Of a stretch of 64,000 nucleotides of DNA, positions 11,855-21,237 are shown piece after piece. The DNA is taken from NCBI GenBank assembly GCA_963771465.1, contig CAVYTU010000011.1, positions 128,001-192,000 on the forward strand, written 5' to 3'. Positions within the stretch are counted from its first letter, which is position 1, and the number at the start of each line of letters is the position of its first letter. This stretch comes from an uncultured delta proteobacterium (GTDB taxonomy: Bacteria > Desulfobacterota > Binatia > UBA9968). The notes below the pieces were generated by a model. It was given only the letters and a program-made list of their open reading frames with translations. It made no database searches and was not told where the DNA came from. A program made the position numbers and the translations under genes.

Positions 11855-12898
11855 CTAATTGCCGCCCAGAAGCTCTTTGACTCTGCCGATTAGCTGCGGC
11901 GGTTGATCGATGACTTCCTTAGACAACTTTTGTAACTCGTCGCCGGCTATGTGTTCGACGCTCCAGTTGCGTCGTTTGGCTTCCTCAAGCAAGTCGGGGT
12001 CCTTCAGCGCGCGACTGTAAGCGTCGCGGAGAATTTGCAGACGATCCTGTGGCACGCCGGGCGGCGCCACCGCGAGGTATTGACCGAAGTAATCGGCGCC
12101 GAGCAGGACCGAAACGATGCGCTGCTTGGGCTCTGGAGTTTGATAACGGGTCATCAGCTCGTAGATCGTCGGCACATCGGGGAGAAGGGGACTGCGTTTG
12201 CGCGGGCTTTGTACCAGGACGCGGATGAAGCCATTCTTTTGCCAGGAGATAAACGGCTCGCGGGCATGGAACGATGAGGCGGACACCGACCGGCATTGTA
12301 CTTCACCGCGCTCGATGGCGAGGTCTTGATCGCTGCCGCTCTTGTAGCCGGTGACGATGCGGAATTTCGCGCCCAACGCGTCATCCAAGAGCCTCAGGTT
12401 AATATGCCCGCTCGATCCCGGCGCCGTGGCGGAACACTTGGGCGGCTCGCTGGCGGCTCGGATATCTTCGATGGACTTATACGGCGTATCGGTGCGCATC
12501 ATCAGCAACGCCTCCACTTTGCCCGCGGCGCCGATCCAACTGAACTTGCGCCAATCGAATTGGACCTCGCGTCGGCCCGTGAGCTGTTGAAAATAGAGAC
12601 CGGCGGAAATTTGTCCGATGGTCAGGCCGTCCGGTTTTGGGACGCGATAAAGATAATTCGCCGCGATCATGGAACCGCCCCCAGCCATGTTTTGTGCAAT
12701 GACATTGGGATTGCCCGGGATAAATTTAACCAGACTGCGTGTCAACGCGCGCGCCCAAAGATCGTTGACATCGCCCGCGGCCATGTTGATGATAAACGTA
12801 ATGGTCTTGCCGCGATAGAAGTCGGTTTGAGCTATCGCAGTGCCATGCGCGAGAACCGTTGTTAACGCCAATAGAAGCAGTGCAATTAGATTCTTCAT
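11855..12898 (-). CDS. TctC/Bug-family substrate-binding protein
   Basis: Likely start MKNLIALLLL at 12898 (signal peptide, avoids overlap); FYRGKTI, KPDGLT, ERGEVQCR motifs. Confidence 0.9.
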   Translation of the reverse strand: MKNLIALLLLALTTVLAHGTAIAQTDFYRGKTITFIINMAAGDVNDLWARALTRSLVKFIPGNPNVIAQNMAGGGSMIAANYLYRVPKPDGLTIGQISAGLYFQQLTGRREVQFDWRKFSWIGAAGKVEALLMMRTDTPYKSIEDIRAASEPPKCSATAPGSSGHINLRLLDDALGAKFRIVTGYKSGSDQDLAIERGEVQCRSVSASSFHAREPFISWQKNGFIRVLVQSPRKRSPLLPDVPTIYELMTRYQTPEPKQRIVSVLLGADYFGQYLAVAPPGVPQDRLQILRDAYSRALKDPDLLEEAKRRNWSVEHIAGDELQKLSKEVIDQPPQLIGRVKELLGGN

Positions 12899-12912
12899 TT
12901 TTGTTGAAACCC

Positions 12913-13641
12913 TTATCGAACCGGCAATGCCGGCCAAGTTGACAGTAGTTTGCCGAATCCGCTGAGTGGATGTTTCAGTCCGAGCTTTGACAGCATATAC
13001 CAATTCATCGCTGGATTGCTCGCGACCACGGGCAAGTTCAATTCACGCTCCATCTGCTCCAAACAATCCATCGGGTCAAGCACCGCGCCTTGGAAATAAA
13101 TCGCGTCGACTTGGCTTTGCTCGGCCATCGCCCGGCGCGCGTAGGCGATGACATCGTCGGGCGTCATTTTAAGCGCGTCGGTGTAGTGTTGCAAAATTTC
13201 GGCGGGCGAGGTGGTAACGATGTCGAATTGGGCGAGAAAATCGCGAATGAGTTGATTCAATGATGCGTCGAACGGAGTCAGCAGCAGAATTCGTTTAGCA
13301 GAAAAAGTTTTGAGCGCTGCCGCGGATGACCGCAGTGCCGTCGCTACGGGAATCTTGAGCGCCGAGGAAAATGCGCCAAACAAGGCAGGGTTCAAAACCT
13401 CGCGCGGCGCGCCGGGAAATATCAGGCCGTCCAGCCTTTGCTTTTGAGCGAACTGCGCGGCGCGGCCGACGATCAAGTCCAGCTTGCCTTGGACGTCGTT
13501 CAACACGCCATCGTGCAGCACCAGCTGCTCGTAGAGAACTTCGACATTGGCTGGAACCAGATTGAGAAACTTTTTGATATGCGAGCTCGACGGCACGCTC
13601 GGACCAAGCCAGCCGATTCTCACTTGTTGATTGTCAGACAT
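12913..13641 (-). CDS. Arylmalonate decarboxylase/maleate isomerase (Asp/Glu racemase superfamily) homologue
   Basis: RIGWLGPS, KRILLLTPF, LPVVASNPAMNW, GFGKLL motifs; usual catalytic Cys positions appear to be Gly. Confidence 0.8.
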   Translation of the reverse strand: MSDNQQVRIGWLGPSVPSSSHIKKFLNLVPANVEVLYEQLVLHDGVLNDVQGKLDLIVGRAAQFAQKQRLDGLIFPGAPREVLNPALFGAFSSALKIPVATALRSSAAALKTFSAKRILLLTPFDASLNQLIRDFLAQFDIVTTSPAEILQHYTDALKMTPDDVIAYARRAMAEQSQVDAIYFQGAVLDPMDCLEQMERELNLPVVASNPAMNWYMLSKLGLKHPLSGFGKLLSTWPALPVR

Positions 13642-13772
13642 TGACGCTCCATAAGCACAGCCGCTACGCGGGTGGAATTAATATGGATCCTGCACCGTCT
13701 CTTCATACAAGGCATCACTATACTATCTTTAACCTCGCTGGAAATTGGCCAACCGGCGGTTCATTTGTGGCA

Positions 13773-14876
13773 CTAAGCCTGCCCCCAGACTTTAACAGCC
13801 GTATCGACTACCAACTTGAGTTTTTGCCACTGCTCCGCTTCCGTGAGCAAGTTTCCTTCCATCGTCGAGGCGAAGCCGCATTGCGGACTGATGGCGAGAT
13901 TCTCCAACGGCACATACTTGCTGGCTTCGTCGACGCGCTTGGCGAGATCGTCCGCTGACTCCATTTCCACCACCTTGCTGCTGACGAGGCCGAGAACCAC
14001 GGTCTTGCCGCGCGGCACGAAGCGCAGCGGTTCGAAAGTGCCGGCGCGCGGCGACTCGTATTCGAGCAGAAACGCGTCGACCTGCAACTGACCGAACAGT
14101 TTTTCGGCGATGGCATCGTAGCCGCCTTCAGCGTACCACTGGCTGCGGTTATTGCCGCGGCACAGATGAATCGCCAAGATCAAGCCGTCGCGCTGTGCGC
14201 CTTCCAGACAAGCATTGTCGGCGCGGATTGCTTCGTCGAGGGCTCGGTCAGGATCGACGCCCGTTTCGCTCTTAATATAATTGCGCCACTTGGGATCGAT
14301 GTAATAGCTGTAGCGCGGAGCATCGATCTGGATGTAGTGCGCGCCATCGTTCGACAAGGCGTGAATCTCCGCCTTGATGATCGGTACGATATCCCAAAGA
14401 AAGGCGGAATGGTCGGGATAGACTTTATCGCTGACACCTGACTTGAAGTAAATCGCCGGAAATTGATTAGCTGTCGGCAGCGTGACTTTGATGTCTCCGG
14501 GATTGTGTTGCTTGAGGAAGGCAAACTCATGTTCGGTCAGGCGCCGGGTTTGTTTGATCTTGCCGACAACCGTGCCGGGTACCATCGAAGGGCGAGGTGA
14601 TGGCCCGGCGCCGGTTTGCCAAGTGCGTGGAACCGCCACACCTTCTTCGATTCCTTCCACGGCGTCGTTGAAGTCGCTCATGAAGTTGCCGCGGCGGAAT
14701 TCGCCGTCGGTGAAAATTTTGAAACCGAGTTCCTTCTGCCGTTCGACCGCCTGTAGAATGTACTTGTCTTCGAGCGCGTTCAGCTGCGCGTAGCCGATCT
14801 GCTCACTCCGCGCTTGTAAAAGCTCTGCCGGCCGAAGCAGGCTGCCAATATGATCTGCGCGATATTTGGCTGCCAT
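13773..14876 (-). CDS. Cobalamin-independent methionine synthase family protein (C-terminal domain only, YxjG/MesB-like)
   Basis: RADHIGSLLRP, TDGEFRR, HLCRGN, LLEY, SPQCGFAS zinc-site motifs. Confidence 0.9.
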   Translation of the reverse strand: MAAKYRADHIGSLLRPAELLQARSEQIGYAQLNALEDKYILQAVERQKELGFKIFTDGEFRRGNFMSDFNDAVEGIEEGVAVPRTWQTGAGPSPRPSMVPGTVVGKIKQTRRLTEHEFAFLKQHNPGDIKVTLPTANQFPAIYFKSGVSDKVYPDHSAFLWDIVPIIKAEIHALSNDGAHYIQIDAPRYSYYIDPKWRNYIKSETGVDPDRALDEAIRADNACLEGAQRDGLILAIHLCRGNNRSQWYAEGGYDAIAEKLFGQLQVDAFLLEYESPRAGTFEPLRFVPRGKTVVLGLVSSKVVEMESADDLAKRVDEASKYVPLENLAISPQCGFASTMEGNLLTEAEQWQKLKLVVDTAVKVWGQA

Positions 14877-14891
14877 AAAATCTCCTTAGGA

Positions 14892-14968
14892 ATGGAGTGA
14901 TAGAATGTTGGAACAATGGAGTATTGGGATTAGACAGCCCCGACCACTCCAGTACTCCATCTCTCCAG
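14892..14968. repeat. TGGAGTA/TACTCCA short-unit inverted repeat
   Basis: atggagtga...atggagtattgg...ccactccagtactccatctctcca; related copy at 17023..17078. Confidence 0.7.
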
Positions 14969-14980
14969 TTTTCATCGACT

Positions 14981-16048
14981 CTATTCCATCAATAACTTCT
15001 TCAGCCGTTGGACGACTTCAGGTGGCTGCGTGATCACTTCCTTCGCCAGCGCTGATAGCTCTTCGCCGCCGACCGCTTCCACCGGCCAGCTGCGCTTCTT
15101 CGCTTCGGCGAGTAGCTCGGGATCTTTCATGGTCTTGCTCCAACCGTCACGCAAAATTTTTAATCGATCGGCGGGCATTTTTGGCGGTGCTATCCACGGC
15201 CGTCCGAACTCATTGGGCGCCATTACCAGCGTTGCGAGCCGCCGGTCGGCATCGCGGACTTTGTATCGCTCCATCAGCTCGATCAGAGTCGGTGTATCCG
15301 GGAGCGACGAATCGCGTTTGCGACCCGTCTGAACGAACGGACGGGTAAAGCCTTTCTTGAACCAACTGATGTGCGGTTCGCGGCCAAAAAATGCCGCGAT
15401 GGTGATCACGCGGCAGTGCAACTCGCCGCGTTCAAGGGCGAGATCGATGTCCGGCGCGCCTTGGTAGCCCGTGATGATATTAAATTTCACGCCAAAGATT
15501 TCTTCCATGAGCTTGGGCGTGTGGTAGGTAATCGAGCCCGTGCCCGTGGAGCCGCATTTGGGCGGCTCGGCAGCTTTGCGCAGATCGTCGATGGTTTTAT
15601 ACGGCGTATCGCTGCGAAACAGAACTGCCAATTCGGTTTGCTCCGGCGTGCCGAGCCAGTTGAATTGCGCCCAATCGAACTGCACCTCGTTTCGGCCGAT
15701 CAGTTGGTCTATATAGAGTCCCGGGTTGATCGAGCCGAGAGTGAGCCCGTCGGGTTTGGCAACATTATAAATGTGATTCGCTGCGATCACCGAGCCCGCG
15801 CCGGGCATGTTTTGTACCATCATGCTCGGATTGCCGGGAATATGTTTGCCCAAGTAGGTTGCGATGTGGCGCGTCCACAAATCGTAAAGGTCGCCAGGCT
15901 GCCCGCCGCGGATAACGCGGACGGTTTTGCCTTGGAAAAAGTTCGACTGGGCATTTACTAATTGGGGTGATGGGAGGCTCGCAGCGATGGCAATGACCAC
16001 CGCCGCGATAGAAATAACTCGGGAAGCTTTCAACATGTGCGAATTCAC
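14981..16048 (-). CDS. TctC/Bug-family substrate-binding protein
   Basis: FFQGKTV, HIPGNP, VQNMPGAG, PPKCG, ERGELHCR motifs. Confidence 0.9.
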   Translation of the reverse strand: MNSHMLKASRVISIAAVVIAIAASLPSPQLVNAQSNFFQGKTVRVIRGGQPGDLYDLWTRHIATYLGKHIPGNPSMMVQNMPGAGSVIAANHIYNVAKPDGLTLGSINPGLYIDQLIGRNEVQFDWAQFNWLGTPEQTELAVLFRSDTPYKTIDDLRKAAEPPKCGSTGTGSITYHTPKLMEEIFGVKFNIITGYQGAPDIDLALERGELHCRVITIAAFFGREPHISWFKKGFTRPFVQTGRKRDSSLPDTPTLIELMERYKVRDADRRLATLVMAPNEFGRPWIAPPKMPADRLKILRDGWSKTMKDPELLAEAKKRSWPVEAVGGEELSALAKEVITQPPEVVQRLKKLLME

Positions 16049-16061
16049 TTGGCCGGCTCGA

Positions 16062-16988
16062 TCAATTACCTAAGGATTTCTTGATGTAATTGTATGCCGC
16101 GATCGCCGCGGTGGCGCCGTCGCCGGCGGAGGTGATCGCTTGGCGCGCCGAATCTTGGCGAATATCGCCGACGGCGTAAAGGCCGTCGCGCGCCGTCTTC
16201 ATCCAGGTGTCGGTCGGAACATGGCCGGTGTCGCTGAGCTTTACGAGTTTCTGCAACAGCGCCGTGTTCGGTTGCAAGCCAACATAAATAAAAATGCCTG
16301 CCAATTTGACTTCAGATATTACTCCGGACGCTAAGTCACGCACGCGCGCGCCAGCGACGACTTCGTCGCCCAACACTTCTTCAATGACCGTTTGGTGACG
16401 CGGCGTGATCTTCGCGTTGTCTAACACTCGTTGCACATAAGTCTGCTGCGCGGAAAACGATTCGCCCTGATGGAAGAGCAAAATTTTCTCGACGTAATTG
16501 GTCAGCGTGAGCGCTTCCTGCAGCGCCGAATCGCCGCCGCCGACCACGCCGACGGTTTGACCGTTATACAATGGCCCGTCGCAGCTGGCGCAGTGGCTGA
16601 CACCGCGGCCCATGAGTTTCTCTTCGCCAGGGACGCCCACATGCTTGAGCATCGAGCCGGTGGCAACGATTACTGTTTTGGCACGATGTTGCTCTTCGTC
16701 AGTAACGACCGACCAGATATTTTCTTGTGCTTCGAGGCGCACGACTTCGGCGCGCTGAAATTCGGCGCCGTAGTCGGAAGCTTGGCGTTGCAGGTTCGGG
16801 CAAAGATCGTAGCCGGTGATTGCGTCAGGGAAGCCGGGAAAGTCTTCGATCTTCTCGATGCTGATCAAATGGCCGCCGGGAATATTCGATTCCATAACCA
16901 GCGTCGCCAGACCGTGTCGCGCAGAGAATAGACCGGCGGTTAAGCCGGCGAGTCCCGAGCCGACGATTATTACGTCGTAGTCTGCCAT
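16062..16988 (-). CDS. trxB: Thioredoxin reductase-like flavoprotein (low-Mr TrxR family), atypical nucleotide-binding motif
   Basis: GSGLAG FAD motif, GRGVSHCASCDG, GGGDSA, GLYAVGDIR...RQAITSAGDGATAA. Confidence 0.85.
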   Translation of the reverse strand: MADYDVIIVGSGLAGLTAGLFSARHGLATLVMESNIPGGHLISIEKIEDFPGFPDAITGYDLCPNLQRQASDYGAEFQRAEVVRLEAQENIWSVVTDEEQHRAKTVIVATGSMLKHVGVPGEEKLMGRGVSHCASCDGPLYNGQTVGVVGGGDSALQEALTLTNYVEKILLFHQGESFSAQQTYVQRVLDNAKITPRHQTVIEEVLGDEVVAGARVRDLASGVISEVKLAGIFIYVGLQPNTALLQKLVKLSDTGHVPTDTWMKTARDGLYAVGDIRQDSARQAITSAGDGATAAIAAYNYIKKSLGN

Positions 16989-17022
16989 ATCGCTTAGCTG
17001 TTTTAAGTTTCGCTTATTGAAG

Positions 17023-17078
17023 CGGAGTGATGGAGTAATGGAGCGTTGGGTTTCGGAAGCACTACTCCATTACTCCAG
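17023..17078. repeat. TGGAGTA/TACTCCA short-unit inverted repeat
   Basis: cggagtgatggagtaatggagc...ctactccattactccag. Confidence 0.7.
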
Positions 17079-17088
17079 TTCGTTTACG

Positions 17089-18750
17089 TCATCTCCACTT
17101 ATCGACCGACACCGTCTTCTGATAATTGCAGCCCATGATGCGCCAGTAGCCGTTGGTCTCGCCGCCGACTACGACGATGTGAATTTCTTCGGGCTTGAAC
17201 ATATGCACCATTTCGTCGGGGGCGGCTTTGAGCTTGGTCGCGTAGGGTTCCTCGCCGAACGTCGCTCTAGGGTAAATATAATTCTGGATCAGTTGATAAT
17301 CCCAGTATTCACCGGCGGGCATGAGCGCATTGTCGTAAACCCATTCGATCATTTTCTCTTTGGTATCGAAGCCGCCGCGGTCGATAAACTGCCGGGCCGC
17401 GATGGGATCGAGCAGGAACGTCGGCGCGCTATGGGCGTCCATGCCGCGCAGCATGCTCTGCACATGCTGACGCCAATATTTTTGGCGCACGCCGAGAGTG
17501 AAAGCCGTCGAACGGCAGCCGGTGAAAATACTCACGGTGCTGTCGGTCGATTTAAATCCCTGTTGGACGTGAAACGGCGTCCATGGGTTGCGCTCTTCAT
17601 TCTCCGCGAAGGTGACGCTGCCATAGGCGTAGCCGTTACCCTGGGAGCCCATGTAGCTGTCGCCGGGAAGCGAGCCGCCCTGGAGATTTTGCGAGAGCAA
17701 GCCGTAGGCGCGGCCGATGGTTGCGTTGGCCTGATTATACGGCGCCATGGCGCCGGTGCCGGAGTTCATGGCGATTTCTTGGCGGATCGGTCCGTTGACG
17801 ACGACCATCGCGGCCATCGAACTGGTGGTGCTGCCGCGCGCGCTCACGCCGCTCGCCGCCAGCGCGAGGATCACGGGAAAATATTCCGGCCTCGCCCCCG
17901 CCATCACCGCGTTGACCGCGACTTGCTCGACGGTAAACTCCCAATGCTGGCGAAATTGGTTCGAGCGCAAATGACCGGCTATTTCGTCCGGCTTATGGCT
18001 CGTGTGCGCGAGCATTTCCTTGACCCGTTTTTCCGTCGGCAGGACAATCGGCAGCTTGTCGGTCCAATTATTTGCCAAAAACAAACTCTGCAGGTTGTCA
18101 TCCGTATCGGAGTCCACCAGTCGCGGCGTCGAGCGCTCAAATTTGACTTCCTTAAGACCATCTCCCTCAGCCGGACGGGTGAGCCCTTCGATAACTTCTT
18201 GCATGACCGGCCGGCCGCTGATCGGACTCTTGCCGTCGACATAGGCGCGCAGTTGGTCCGCGGTTTTGCCCATCACCGGTTGGGGCACGAAAGTGTAACG
18301 CGCTTCGGACATGCCGTGCATTCGGGTCACCGATTGCACCGCCTTCTCGAAGACGTTGGTGTGGATAGCGACGGTGGGCACACCGTATTTGCTATCGAGG
18401 GCGATTGCGTGCACGGCGACCGCCGGCGCGCAGGTGCTTCAATGGCCGACACCGATGACGGCGCCGTCGCCGTTGGCCTTGATCATCTCCCAGGTTTTCG
18501 GATCGTCCTTGGTGTAGACGCTCGACATTTCCACCAGCTTGGTTTTCACCGAGGGCATGTGCTCGGTGAACCAATTCTCCACCTGGCGCAGGAACAACCC
18601 CGAGTCGTCGAAGCGCGGGTCGACCAAATAGATCGTCTTGCCGTCCAAGCTATCCAGTCGAGGCGCCATCGCTTTCGGCGTGATCTTGGGTGGAAACCCC
18701 ACCGGGTTTAACACGGAAATATTTTGCGTTCCGTTAGTATCGTCAGCCAT
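17089..18750 (-). CDS. Selenoprotein, UGSC-family-like UxxC domain fused to a large domain of unknown function (553 aa, Sec104)
   Basis: ORFs 18439..18798 and 17089..18414 are in one frame: ...GTC GGC CAT TGA AGC ACC TGC GCG... = VGH-U-STC-APAVAVHAI; ATG at 18750 after GAGGAGG; SECIS-like hairpin follows the UGA. Confidence 0.85.
18406..18432 (-). promoter_or_regulatory. Putative bacterial SECIS element
   Basis: UGCG-C-GC-CGGC-[GGUC]-GCCG-U-GC-A-CGCA; loop begins with G after a 17-nt spacer from the UGA; bulged U. Confidence 0.65.
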
Positions 18751-18821
18751 GGATAAATCCTCCTCGTTCTTCTTATGATCTAGCTGAAAAGTAATCAACC
18801 GGTTTCTTGGCTAGCACACGA

Positions 18822-19925
18822 TTACTCGGCGAGAAGTTTTTTTACTTTCTCGATCACCTCGGGACTCTGTTCGATCACTTCGCGCGCCAACTTTTGCAAT
18901 TGCTCTCCCGGCGTGTAGTCGACATCCAGGTTGCTCTTCTTTGCTTCAGCGAGCAGCTCGGGGTCCTTGAGCGCTTGAGCGTAAGCGGCGCGCAGCATCT
19001 TCACCAGTTCAGGGCGCGTGCCCGGCGGCGCGATCATCGCCCGGCCGAAATCGTTTGCTGTGAGAACCGTTTCGGCGACGCTTCGGCTTACCTGCGGGGT
19101 CTTGTATTCGTTCATGATCTCCCAGATCGTCGGCGTCTCGGGCAGCCTGGGATCGCGCGTGCGCGCGTCCTGCACGAGGTGGCGGTCGTACCGCTTGGCA
19201 TGCCAGGTGTTAAACGGCTCGCGGCCGAAGTGAGATGAGATGTCATGACCGCGGCAAACCACCTCGCCCTTTTCCACGGCAAGATCGATTTCCTTGCCGC
19301 CGGAGTAGCCGACGATAACGTTAAACTTCGCGCCGACGGTTTCTTCCAAAACTTTGGGAAGAATGTAGCCGGAACTGGCAAATCCCGAGGCGCCGCACTT
19401 CGGCGGCTCTTTCGCCTTGATGACATCGCCGATGGTTTTGAACGGCGCGTCGGCGCGAAAGTAAAGCATCTGCGTCCATTTTTCCTGGGTGCCGATCCAC
19501 TCAAATTTGCGCACGTCGAACTTGACCTCGGTGCGTCCGACCAGTTGGGTAAGATAAAGACTGCTGTTCGGTATGCCGACGGTGAGGCCGTCGGGTTTGG
19601 CGACGCTGTAAACGAAATTGGAAGCCACCACGGAGCTCGCCCCGGGCATGTTTTGGACGATGAAGTTCGGGCTCCCCGGAATAAATTTCGGCATGCTGCG
19701 GGCAAACATGCGCGCCCATTGATCGGACAAACCGCCGGCAGTGAAGCCGACGATGATCCGAATCGTCTTGCCCTGGTAATAGGGCTCAGTCTGGGCGTAC
19801 CCCGGAGCCGTTACGGTTCCGTAGAGCAGAATCGAGAGCAGTAACACGTTAATTTTTAACGGATCGCTGCGAAACATTGTCGCAGGCTTCAACGCGCTCA
19901 CCGCATATCGCAATCGTTCAAACAT
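18822..19925 (-). CDS. TctC/Bug-family substrate-binding protein
   Basis: YYQGKTIRIIVGFTAGG, VQNMPGA, AKPDGLT, PPKCG motifs; start may be further downstream. Confidence 0.9.
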   Translation of the reverse strand: MFERLRYAVSALKPATMFRSDPLKINVLLLSILLYGTVTAPGYAQTEPYYQGKTIRIIVGFTAGGLSDQWARMFARSMPKFIPGSPNFIVQNMPGASSVVASNFVYSVAKPDGLTVGIPNSSLYLTQLVGRTEVKFDVRKFEWIGTQEKWTQMLYFRADAPFKTIGDVIKAKEPPKCGASGFASSGYILPKVLEETVGAKFNVIVGYSGGKEIDLAVEKGEVVCRGHDISSHFGREPFNTWHAKRYDRHLVQDARTRDPRLPETPTIWEIMNEYKTPQVSRSVAETVLTANDFGRAMIAPPGTRPELVKMLRAAYAQALKDPELLAEAKKSNLDVDYTPGEQLQKLAREVIEQSPEVIEKVKKLLAE

Positions 19926-20205
19926 TCTATACCTCGCTCCCTGTGTGTTGACCGCGCGCGGCGGCGAGCCGCCACTTTGCGGTAGTTGCTTCTTGCGGCG
20001 GGTGATTAAACGACGTAAGCGCGCTGCTTGTCAAGAAAAGGACTCAGTGTGATTCACTTTGCTGCCGGGATGATCGGGATTTTCATCTAGTATTCCCATC
20101 GAAATCAGACCAGCGATCGTCCTTGACGTTTAATTTGGATCTGCCTTATGTTGCAAACCGCACGAGGTCGCGTTGCTTGGGTCACCAATGCAGATTGGAG
20201 GCGAT

Positions 20206-21237
20206 ATGAAAAAGCTTTACGGATTGTTCATCTTACTTCTCATTGGGACTGCCGATGTCGCAGCGCAAACTCCCTACTTCCAGGGGAAGACCATAAGAAT
20301 TGTCGTCGGCTATCCCACCGCCAGCGCCCATGACCATTGGGCGCGCTTGATTGCGCCGCAGTTGACCAAATATATTCCGGGAAATCCCGCCGCCATCGTT
20401 CAAAACATGCCCGGCGCCGGCTCGATGACCGCGACCAATTATGTTTACAGCGTCGCCAAGCCCGATGGCTTGACCCTCGGTGTCAACAATGCGGCGCTCT
20501 ACTTCGAACAGCTTCTGAAAAAGCGCGAGGTCCAGTTCGATTGGGCAAAGCTCACCTGGGTCGGCAGCACGACGCCGACGACGCCACTCTTGTACATGTG
20601 GGCGAACACTCCCTACAAAACCATTCACGACGTGCGCACGGCATCGGTGCCGCCGAAATGCGGCGTCACGGGCACGGGCAACACCGGCTACTATCTTCCC
20701 AAATTGCTCGAAGAAACCATTGGCGCGAAGTTTCAACTGGTCTTAGGTTATGAAGGCGGCGCGAGCATCGAGTTGGCCGTGGAGCGCGGCGAGGTGCAGT
20801 GCCGCGCCTTTACCATCCAGGTTTTTTTTGGCCGCGAACCGTTTCATACTTGGCGCAGCAAAAACCAAGTGCGCGTACTGGTTCAAGGCGGCAAGAAGCG
20901 CGATCCGCGCTTGCCCGATACGCCGTTGCTTAGCGAGTTGATGGATCAATACAAGGTCTCGGAAGCCAATCGCCGTCTGGTGACCGTGATGATGGGCTCG
21001 GGTGAACTCGGCAGCGCGCCGATGTTCGCACCGCCGGGTGTCGGCGCGGAGCAAGTCAAGATTTTACGCGCGGCCTATGCCAAGGCGCTGACCAGCGCTG
21101 AGCTTATCGCCGAGGCCAAGAAGCAAGGTTACGATGCCGAGTTGATTCACGGCGAGGAGATTGAAGCACTCGCCAAAGAAGTTTTGACCCAGCCGGCCGA
21201 CGTGATCGCGGCGATGAAGAAGGTTATGGGAGAATAA
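20206..21237 (+). CDS. TctC/Bug-family substrate-binding protein
   Basis: ATG 20206 after GGAGG; YFQGKTI, VQNMPGAG, PPKCG, ERGEVQCR motifs. Confidence 0.9.
   Translation: MKKLYGLFILLLIGTADVAAQTPYFQGKTIRIVVGYPTASAHDHWARLIAPQLTKYIPGNPAAIVQNMPGAGSMTATNYVYSVAKPDGLTLGVNNAALYFEQLLKKREVQFDWAKLTWVGSTTPTTPLLYMWANTPYKTIHDVRTASVPPKCGVTGTGNTGYYLPKLLEETIGAKFQLVLGYEGGASIELAVERGEVQCRAFTIQVFFGREPFHTWRSKNQVRVLVQGGKKRDPRLPDTPLLSELMDQYKVSEANRRLVTVMMGSGELGSAPMFAPPGVGAEQVKILRAAYAKALTSAELIAEAKKQGYDAELIHGEEIEALAKEVLTQPADVIAAMKKVMGE

Follow-up and report, generated by a model that had tools for sequence, protein, structure and literature searches.

Low molecular weight (low-Mr) thioredoxin reductases (TrxRs) carry two signatures for their dinucleotide substrate: its pyrophosphate is recognized by GGGxxAxE, its 2'-phosphate by VxxxHRRDx[F/L]R (Valette 2017, PMC5627308). 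As described there, the NADPH-type TR1 and the NADH-preferring TR3 have the first signature in highly conserved form. In TRi, which is independent of NAD(P)H, it is highly degenerate, and ferredoxin- and F420-dependent enzymes show it less conserved. To bind the 2'-phosphate, E. coli TrxR depends on salt bridges to three arginines, and the one lysine in DvTRi is insufficient for it (PMC5627308). The core of the second signature, HRRxxxR, is absent from the F420-dependent TR of M. jannaschii and from the NADH-dependent TR of T. acidophilum (Buey 2018, PMC6262447). A link between such reductases and selenoproteins is known from the grd operon, whose thioredoxin system is described as required for reducing the selenoprotein GrdA (PMC10880999). 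UGSC proteins count among the commonest selenoproteins of aquatic metagenomes, and the literature from 2007 to 2026 gives their function as unknown in the passages that treat them (including PMC2398784 and PMC13188914). A fusion of UGSC with a second domain, Unknown_1, was named by Zhang and Gladyshev in 2008, also with unknown function (PMC2398784), and a review of 2026 lists UGSC among the uncharacterised selenoproteins (PMC13188914). Here we describe a TrxR gene that adjoins a gene for such a UGSC/Unknown_1 fusion in a stretch of 64,000 nucleotides, called the window below (positions 128001-192000 of contig C11 in the 6.9 Mb genome of an uncultured delta proteobacterium, assembled in 19 contigs). 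The encoded enzyme belongs to a distinct TrxR subfamily which travels with UGSC/Unknown_1 proteins. There is about an even chance that the UxxC centre of the upstream selenoprotein has in this enzyme a dedicated reductase, which probably prefers NADH.

The reductase gene (16062..16988, minus strand) encodes a TrxR-family flavoprotein disulfide reductase paralogue of 308 amino acids (aa), as indicated by the open reading frame (ORF), by Pfam, NCBIfam and phmmer matches and by its placement in a clade. The protein matches Pfam Pyr_redox_2 (7e-37) and the complete TIGR01292 model for TRX_reduct (model positions 1-300 of 300) with 321.3 bits, which is below the curated cut-off of 343.45; in a six-frame search of the genome the gene scores 320.9 bits. 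The nearest solved relatives are bacterial TrxRs, namely 5uth_A, 2q7v_A and 7aaw_A (phmmer E 5.5e-68, 1.1e-65 and 6.4e-64). Both hallmarks of low-Mr TrxRs, a GxGxxG motif for flavin adenine dinucleotide (FAD) as well as a CxxC within the nucleotide-binding domain, are present. The FAD-binding motif reads GSGLAG (residues 10-15; 16944..16961, minus strand) in the translation and in the TrxR alignment A2, in which G10, G12, A14 and G15 are invariant. The redox-active motif is CASC (Cys133 and Cys136; 16581..16592, minus strand), which aligns with the CxxC of solved TrxRs and is directly preceded by His132; both cysteines are invariant in A2. AhpF, an enzyme of about 520 aa with an N-terminal double thioredoxin-fold domain, was rejected as an assignment. 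The window protein with its 308 aa has no such N-terminal domain, and its match to the AhpF model TIGR03140 is confined to model positions 212-512, with 215.9 bits versus a cut-off of 502.9.

According to the translation and the alignments the dinucleotide pyrophosphate-binding motif is intact and reads GGGDSALQE (residues 150-158; 16515..16541, minus strand), in agreement with GGGxxAxE. At the 2'-phosphate site HRRDxxRA is replaced by HQGESFSA (residues 173-180; 16449..16472, minus strand), which contains no basic residue according to the alignments and column counts. The diagnostic segments of the protein are GRGVSH-CASC-DGPLY, GGGDSALQE and LLFHQGESFSAQQ. In the phmmer comparison with solved TrxRs 'lfhqgesfsaq' pairs with 'lihrrdefras', 'vihrrdtlran' and 'ivhrrdtlraq'. 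Instead of the NADPH-type motif VxxxHRRDx[F/L]R the enzyme has ILLFHQGESFSA, with Q, G and S at the arginine positions, which we take to be 176, 177 and 181 in E. coli numbering. The original prediction, made from the letters of the window, had described CASC and GGGDSA as intact and HQGESFSA as the counterpart of HRRDGFRA with all three arginines gone. The former is borne out by the 308-aa translation, and the latter proved exact to the residue in the alignments to solved TrxRs.

The best 120 database homologues of the window TrxR are 77-99% identical to it and all contain CASC. Scored were 115 of them; the remaining five read GAGDSA and were left unscored. Arginine is found at position 176 in 14 of the 115 and at positions 177 and 181 in none, while position 178 is acidic in 109 and a histidine stands ahead of the first cysteine in 114. 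The loss of arginine at the 2'-phosphate site is a lineage trait and not due to chance.

A wider comparison was based on a TrxR alignment and tree of 73 rows, which comprise 34 UGSC-linked TrxR-likes, a TrxR-like from the Dehalococcoidia locus L026 (see below) with its relative, four SAR202 enzymes and 33 canonical enzymes including the housekeeping TrxR of the genome itself. The long or odd rows L032, L025, L037, L038 and a paralogue from contig C13 were left out. A quick IQ-TREE run united 34 of the 35 linked TrxR-likes in a single clade (Shimodaira-Hasegawa-like approximate likelihood ratio test, SH-aLRT, 98) made up of linked rows only, which is no unbiased estimate because the wider clade was mostly collected via its UGSC neighbour. 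A tree of 51 rows agrees with this result. The sister of the linked clade is formed by an HRRD-type Dehalococcoidia enzyme together with the SAR202 group; the canonical TrxR of the genome is far from it and L026 stands separate.

Members of the linked clade are recognized by their active site. A histidine before the first cysteine and the sequence CA[S/A]C occur in 34 of 34 linked and in 0 of 33 canonical enzymes, in which CATC is found 30 times and the preceding residue is Tyr, Ala or Phe. The pyrophosphate motif is present as GGGD[ST][AG] in all 34 linked enzymes (the canonical ones were not scored in that form). The three arginines, each present in 33 of 33 canonical enzymes, are lost to different degrees: Arg176 is kept in 21 of 34, Arg177 in none (Gly in 26) and Arg181 in 4, and 12 of the 34 have an arginine after Ala182, at position 183. 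The loss is most advanced in the subclade of the window, where 2 of 10 keep Arg176. The window TrxR itself combines His-CA[S/A]C, GGGD[ST][AG]x[DQGS]E, a residue other than arginine at 177, a place in the clade and adjacency to a UGSC/Unknown_1 gene, the last of which is circular as a criterion for subclade B, since the set that defines the subfamily was gathered partly through adjacency.

The upstream gene (17089..18798, minus strand; TTG at 18798, likely start ATG at 18750) encodes the UGSC/Unknown_1 fusion selenoprotein, with the UGSC domain at about residues 25-195 and the Unknown_1 domain at about residues 196-569. When TGA is translated as U, an in-frame TGA (18439..18441, minus strand) gives selenocysteine (Sec) 120 in GVGH-U-STC. 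Pfam UGSC (PF24696) is matched on either side of this codon with 27.7 and 36.3 bits (cut-off 25), so that a PF24696 match and U/C-x-x-C at the conserved position, which characterize the family, are both found. The protein is a divergent member, because the read-through sequence scores only 61.1 bits with NF041046 ('UGSC family (seleno)protein'), the cut-off of which is 125. Among the best 120 matches all 71 full-length homologues (546-569 aa) have Cys at the TGA position, in the motif GVGHCSTCAP in 70 cases and GVGHCSSCAP in one. The genome encodes Sec machinery (tRNA-Sec, SelA with 614 bits and SelB with 359 bits). A hairpin resembling a selenocysteine insertion sequence (SECIS), with 10 pairs and the apical loop GGUC, is situated 7 nt past the TGA (18406..18432, minus strand). 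RNAalifold on 10 orthologues showed the loop and inner stem to be identical in 10 of 10, with changes that are wobble-compatible only and 0 compensatory pairs. As a single sequence the hairpin does not exceed shuffles in stability (z 0.00), and an Rfam search with it gave nothing relevant, the one match being a snoRNA at E 0.97.

The C-terminal part of the selenoprotein is less easily assigned. For the about 375 residues of Unknown_1 no Pfam family was found (best RPN13_C, E 0.12), NCBIfam matched UGSC_fam alone in the selenoprotein and nothing in Unknown_1, and the relatives in the ESM Atlas are UGSC-type or unnamed clusters only. Pfam searches with 12 longer or stand-alone relatives likewise gave UGSC or no match. 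AF2 modelling was confident, with a predicted local distance difference test (pLDDT) score of 82.7 for the whole selenoprotein and of 91.4 for the Unknown_1 domain alone. Foldseek returned no match at E<=0.001 for either of them (best for Unknown_1 E 9e-3), and a wide VIA-align search with the Unknown_1 model (17092-18213) reached a top Z of 4.2 and no solved relative, which is not proof of a new fold. Unknown_1 constitutes a large orphan domain family with 3925 representative clusters at E<=0.001. Several members are encoded by the genome under study: there are split pairs of a short UGSC gene and a separate Unknown_1 gene behind it at C17:441233-442876 and C17:457746-459002, with one in-frame TGA in each UGSC gene, and two further fused paralogues at C18:174761 and C17:61103.

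The linkage was first assessed from the side of the reductase, in a scan with one genome per species that returned 80 loci. All ten loci with a TrxR that reaches 68% identity or more to that of the window (L015-L023 and L040) have a UGSC/Unknown_1 gene directly upstream on the same strand. Further neighbours that they have in common, with 73-93% identity, are TctC, MetE-like and Amdase-like genes. In L040 (6347-7800) a TctC gene, 63% identical to the copy at 14981-16048 of the window, is inserted between the selenoprotein and TrxR genes, and behind it lies a duplicate of 29 codons from the selenoprotein 3' end. L015, L016 and L019-L021 have 3.4-5 kb of extra DNA between the TrxR gene and the next shared gene, which in L016 and L020, the two that were inspected, contains tandem ORFs of about 330 aa with signal-peptide-like starts. 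In L023 and L021, both from long-contig metagenome-assembled genomes (MAGs), apparent frameshifts in both genes of the pair are probably assembly errors, and the TrxR of L023 is cut by the contig end.

An independent pairing was found at L026, a locus from a Dehalococcoidia MAG, where a UGSC/Unknown_1 gene with GVGD-U-GSC (28% identity) is followed by a TrxR-like gene of a separate and distant lineage (37% identity, CAFC, LIEAMPECTA). Among the best 30 loci from 301 Dehalococcoidia genomes, inspected with 1.5-kb flanks, pairs of this type occurred in the genome of L026 only; the sample includes the unpublished genome G647, on which no claim is based. The group next to the window enzyme by similarity are SAR202/Dehalococcoidia TrxRs with 46-47% identity and CRSSSLHA. 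They were considered as a second linked group poor in arginine and rejected, as no UGSC gene lies within 8 kb. Since they share their neighbourhood with an HRRD-type orthologue and have no UGSC gene within that distance, these TrxRs look like housekeeping enzymes. In the marine MAGs concerned (L027-L033) CRSSSLHA keeps one arginine of three and occurs together with CATC and GGGDSALQE. Their TrxR neighbours match those of the HRRD-type orthologue L024, and an ORF of about 530 aa lies about 3 kb upstream, the start of which resembles a translational GTPase (candidate).

Seen from the selenoprotein the linkage is weaker: it is one-sided, being looser and not obligate in this direction, which speaks against a dedicated partnership. 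In the phylum of the window 47 of 401 genomes have a match to the fusion model, and a TrxR-like gene was found at 0 of 20 UGSC/Unknown_1 loci from other genomes of the phylum within flanks of about 6 kb. Five of those genomes hold CATC-type TrxRs only, which are at best 34-40% identical to the window TrxR. The genome of the window itself holds four more UGSC/Unknown_1 systems in three further paralogue regions, and a TrxR is absent from about 6 kb around all of them. The ten of ten loci on the reductase side, moreover, are not ten independent events, because they were chosen by TrxR similarity and stem from related organisms with conserved synteny.

In metagenomes, a scan with the Cys-form orthologue P0224 as query returned 80 loci, of which 61 had at least 900 bp downstream. 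A TrxR-like gene lies within 400 bp on the same strand at 22 of these 61 UGSC-long loci and elsewhere in the locus at seven more. The 32 Cys-form loci account for 19 of the adjacent genes and six of the others, leaving seven loci with none, and the seven loci of undetermined form comprise two with an adjacent gene and five with none. Of the 22 Sec-form loci one has an adjacent TrxR-like gene, one has it elsewhere in the locus and 20 have none, which again does not favour an obligate partnership. On one metagenome contig (L181:3879-5656) a canonical HRRD-type TrxR gene comes directly after a UGSC-linked TrxR-like gene, so that the two kinds lie next to each other. Cys-form orthologues were found neither at E<=1e-100 in 401 genomes of an alphaproteobacterial order nor in four named genomes. 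The conservation of the neighbourhood, which the original prediction had offered as a check, is therefore complete from the reductase side at 68% identity and above, and partial (22/61 adjacent) from the selenoprotein side.

With regard to the electron donor, binding of a pyridine dinucleotide and a preference for NADH would be expected, because the pyrophosphate motif is kept and no basic residue remains at the 2'-phosphate site. By these motifs NADH, or a relaxed use of NADH and NADPH, is the likelier donor. It is improbable that NADPH is still preferred and that other residues compensate for the three lost arginines. Such a preference would agree with the intact pyrophosphate motif and with the retention of His175, and residual NADPH use is possible in relatives, since Arg176 is present in 21 and the arginine at position 183 in 12 of the 34 clade members. 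Neither can Glu176 be taken for a classical NADH-discriminating acid, because it is aligned with the canonical Asp178, which is also acidic. However, the window enzyme has Q, G and S at the arginine positions, and its 115 close homologues have no Arg177, no Arg181 and only 14 times Arg176. The dependence of E. coli TrxR on three arginines and the insufficient lysine of DvTRi (PMC5627308) likewise speak against a maintained NADPH preference, as do the donors of those TrxRs without the motif that were assayed, namely NADH, F420 or one that is unknown (PMC6262447, PMC5627308).

The stronger reading of the original prediction, a donor other than a pyridine nucleotide (ferredoxin, flavodoxin or F420) as in FFTR, DTR, TRi or DFTR, is highly unlikely. 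The loss of the 2'-phosphate arginines is indeed common to these enzymes (PMC5627308, PMC6262447), and a short ORF about 2 kb downstream in L026 has, by eye only, a flavodoxin-like start (candidate). Ferredoxin and F420 are nevertheless unlikely donors for the window TrxR by its motifs, because the dinucleotide motif is kept, as GGGDSALQE here and as GGGD[ST][AG] in 34 of 34 clade members; the neighbourhoods of the pair showed neither a ferredoxin nor an F420 gene. In phmmer the window protein matches NADPH-type TrxRs (5.5e-68 to 1e-50) far better than 6gna, 6gnc and 6gnd (2e-25 to 5e-24), which we take to be FFTR, or 5n0j (8.6e-13), presumably DDOR; 5j60, presumably DTR, is matched at 2.8e-47. 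What stands of the claim of a dedicated reductase with a non-NADPH donor is the specialised paralogue tied to a UxxC selenoprotein, as seen from the ten loci and the clade. The ferredoxin or F420 sense of that claim is not supported, as GGGxxAxE is intact in the window enzyme and throughout the clade.

For the pair as a whole we propose that the FAD of the window TrxR would be reduced by a pyridine nucleotide in reduced form. This would most likely be NADH, as there is no basic residue left for the 2'-phosphate. The FAD would then reduce the Cys133-Cys136 disulfide, and the dithiol so formed would reduce the selenenylsulfide Sec120-Cys123 of the adjoining UGSC domain by direct contact and not via a thioredoxin. 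The UGSC domain may in turn serve the fused Unknown_1 domain. A dedicated partnership is supported by the conserved and partly independent adjacency together with the subfamily-specific active site, and the recurrence of the pair in many soil bacteria suggests a private electron supply for the selenoprotein.

The genome has a normal housekeeping enzyme, beside which the window TrxR is an extra copy. This housekeeping TrxR (C15:160463-161446) has HRRDKLRA and scores 415.4 bits with TIGR01292; the window TrxR is free to specialise because this NADPH-type enzyme is encoded on another contig. A third TrxR-like ORF of 590 aa (C13:475470-477239) is TrxR-like in its C-terminal about 330 residues (221.5 bits to TIGR01292), which are preceded by about 260 N-terminal residues and lack a CxxC where the alignment would place it. 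As to thioredoxins, a search restricted to PF00085 gave 0 matches at E<=0.001 on the contig of the window and eight on other contigs. The earlier remark that the window has no thioredoxin gene thus holds for PF00085, and even for the whole contig.

These data bear on another explanation, which we regard as unlikely: the window enzyme could be a second general TrxR for ordinary thioredoxins, with the UGSC protein as one possible target and the adjacency as a matter of co-regulation. To our knowledge, all substrates of low-Mr TrxRs are thioredoxin-fold proteins. The model of the UGSC domain is a flavodoxin/CheY/B12-binding-like parallel alpha/beta structure (VIA Z 9-10.8) and not a classical thioredoxin fold, so that an intermediary thioredoxin encoded elsewhere is possible, for which the eight PF00085 matches would be at hand. 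The window TrxR also keeps the GRG motif for thioredoxin contact (motif role in PMC5627308), the grd precedent passes electrons via a thioredoxin (PMC10880999) and most UGSC-long genes are without an adjacent TrxR. A Phe after the CxxC likewise belongs to the thioredoxin-contact signature (PMC5627308). The window TrxR has CDGPLY in place of CDGFFF there, but this change from FF to PL was dropped as a sign of a changed partner, since CDGPLF and CDGAFF are also seen in HRRD-type enzymes and DGPLF is common among them. A general TrxR fits less well with the lack of a PF00085 thioredoxin gene with the pair in the window, and no thioredoxin gene was present among 98 neighbouring ORFs scanned at 13 loci. 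The signature His-CA[S/A]C, found in every linked and no canonical enzyme, suggests a changed partner or redox tuning. Finally, 34 of 34 sampled clade members adjoin a UGSC-long gene, though sampling was mostly through UGSC.

The two genes are separated by a gap of 100 nt (16989..17088, minus strand, from the ORF ends), within which no promoter-like or terminator-like site was found on the minus strand. DNA nearly identical to the locus is found in soil metagenomes from several studies. A contig of 435 nt from the soil RNA library X15 spans 16675-17109 with 2 differences; it covers the 5' part of the TrxR gene and the entire gap and reaches 21 nt into the upstream ORF. Another contig of this library crosses the junction of the selenoprotein gene with the TctC gene upstream of it. 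The RNA contig over the gap may be a weak hint at read-through or co-transcription. It is only a hint, because contigs cannot prove a single transcript and carry-over of DNA is possible. The contigs of the library leave stretches of both genes uncovered, and no inference was drawn from these gaps.

The surroundings of the pair are rich in genes for solute-binding proteins. At least five genes of the TctC family (tripartite tricarboxylate transporter receptor) lie within 10 kb around the pair (11855-21237), together with a MetE-like gene (Meth_synt_2, 13773-14876) and an arylmalonate-decarboxylase-like gene (Amdase, 12913-13641), and this set is syntenic in close relatives. Across lineages the flanking genes vary (MarR regulators, TctC or NMT1-type binding proteins and others). 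Solute-binding proteins aside, which are common nearby, only the pair of UGSC/Unknown_1 and TrxR recurs. The recurrent TctC and NMT1-like proteins and MarR regulators, as well as the open function of Unknown_1, would also be compatible with a reductase for a small molecule (a low-molecular-weight disulfide, a selenium compound or a peroxide-related substrate) that has the UGSC protein in the same pathway. This is the least probable of the alternatives, since protein-reducing low-Mr TrxRs have the same domain order, the same placement of CxxC within the nucleotide domain and GRG, and no small-molecule-specific family scores near TIGR01292.

A more far-reaching proposal extends the dedicated reductase to the entire locus. 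The pair might be a self-contained selenoenzyme system of a new type driven by pyridine nucleotides, in which an NADH-linked His-CA[S/A]C TrxR reduces a flavodoxin-like UGSC domain directly. UGSC would then be the built-in redox arm for a reductive reaction of Unknown_1 on an imported substrate, possibly taken up by the neighbouring solute-binding systems, loosely in analogy to glycine and proline reductases. We put forward this proposal tentatively, as a doubtful extension of a dedicated reductase.

The association of a reductase subfamily with the UGSC/Unknown_1 fusion is the first concrete handle on Sec-Cys recycling in these proteins. An abundant orphan selenoprotein family gains a testable redox partner, and an open question becomes one for a two-protein assay. 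In the linked clade the 2'-phosphate site is lost step by step, first Arg177, next Arg181 and last Arg176, and the dinucleotide site is retained, which offers a natural series for shifts between NADPH and NADH preference. In addition, the clade is a possible case of a low-Mr TrxR that serves a partner without thioredoxin fold.

Compared with known systems, the window TrxR is closest in architecture to canonical low-Mr TrxB (TIGR01292; 5uth, 1tde), with which it shares length, domain order, GxGxxG, the position of CxxC, GRG and GGGxxAxE, at about 45% identity to solved canonical enzymes. It differs by HQGESFSA, CASC instead of CATC, the histidine before the first cysteine and a TIGR01292 score under the cut-off. 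While canonical trxB occurs alone or with trxA, the window gene sits behind a selenoprotein gene. That gene corresponds to the fusion of Zhang and Gladyshev (PMC2398784), having the UxxC motif in a UGSC domain followed by Unknown_1; the passages on the fusion in that paper, apart from its Figure S1, mention no reductase neighbour, whereas here a TrxR adjoins. In the passages of the literature on UGSC selenoproteins and thioredoxin reductase that were covered, the same Figure S1 excepted, none pairs both.

The reductases with other donors, FFTR, TRi, DTR and DFTR, have lost the 2'-phosphate arginines like the window TrxR. DTR, DDOR and DFTR are marked by a C-terminal tail or an F420 site specific to the family. 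TRi and the ferredoxin and F420 enzymes, however, have also lost the pyrophosphate motif to a varying degree (PMC5627308), which is intact here. TRi is further characterized by TQ/NGK (PMC5627308), in contrast to HQGE with an intact GGGDSALQE in the window enzyme, which therefore does not belong to the FFTR/TRi type. The TrxR of T. acidophilum (3cty), by its description a low-Mr enzyme without HRRxxxR that is active with NADH and not with NADPH (PMC6262447), matches the window TrxR with a phmmer E of 1.1e-51. It is an archaeal housekeeping enzyme that reduces a thioredoxin, unlike the UGSC-linked enzyme of the window.

With regard to gene arrangement, TrxB3/TrxA3 of the clostridial grd operon offers a parallel, as the reductase is encoded with the selenoprotein GrdA and keeps its selenide-sulfide reduced (PMC10880999). 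TrxB3 keeps GxGxxA and HRRxxxR and uses a co-encoded thioredoxin (PMC10880999), whereas the window TrxR has lost the arginines and has no PF00085 neighbour. TR3 of D. vulgaris, as far as published signatures allow the comparison, has CxQ for G[R/K]G and VHY for VSY (PMC5627308), where the window TrxR has GRG and VSH. In common with the window TrxR it is a duplicated enzyme in which the pyrophosphate motif is kept and the 2'-phosphate motif is lost, and it is encoded beside a dedicated non-canonical partner, which is Trx3 in D. vulgaris (PMC5627308) and the UGSC/Unknown_1 protein in the window.

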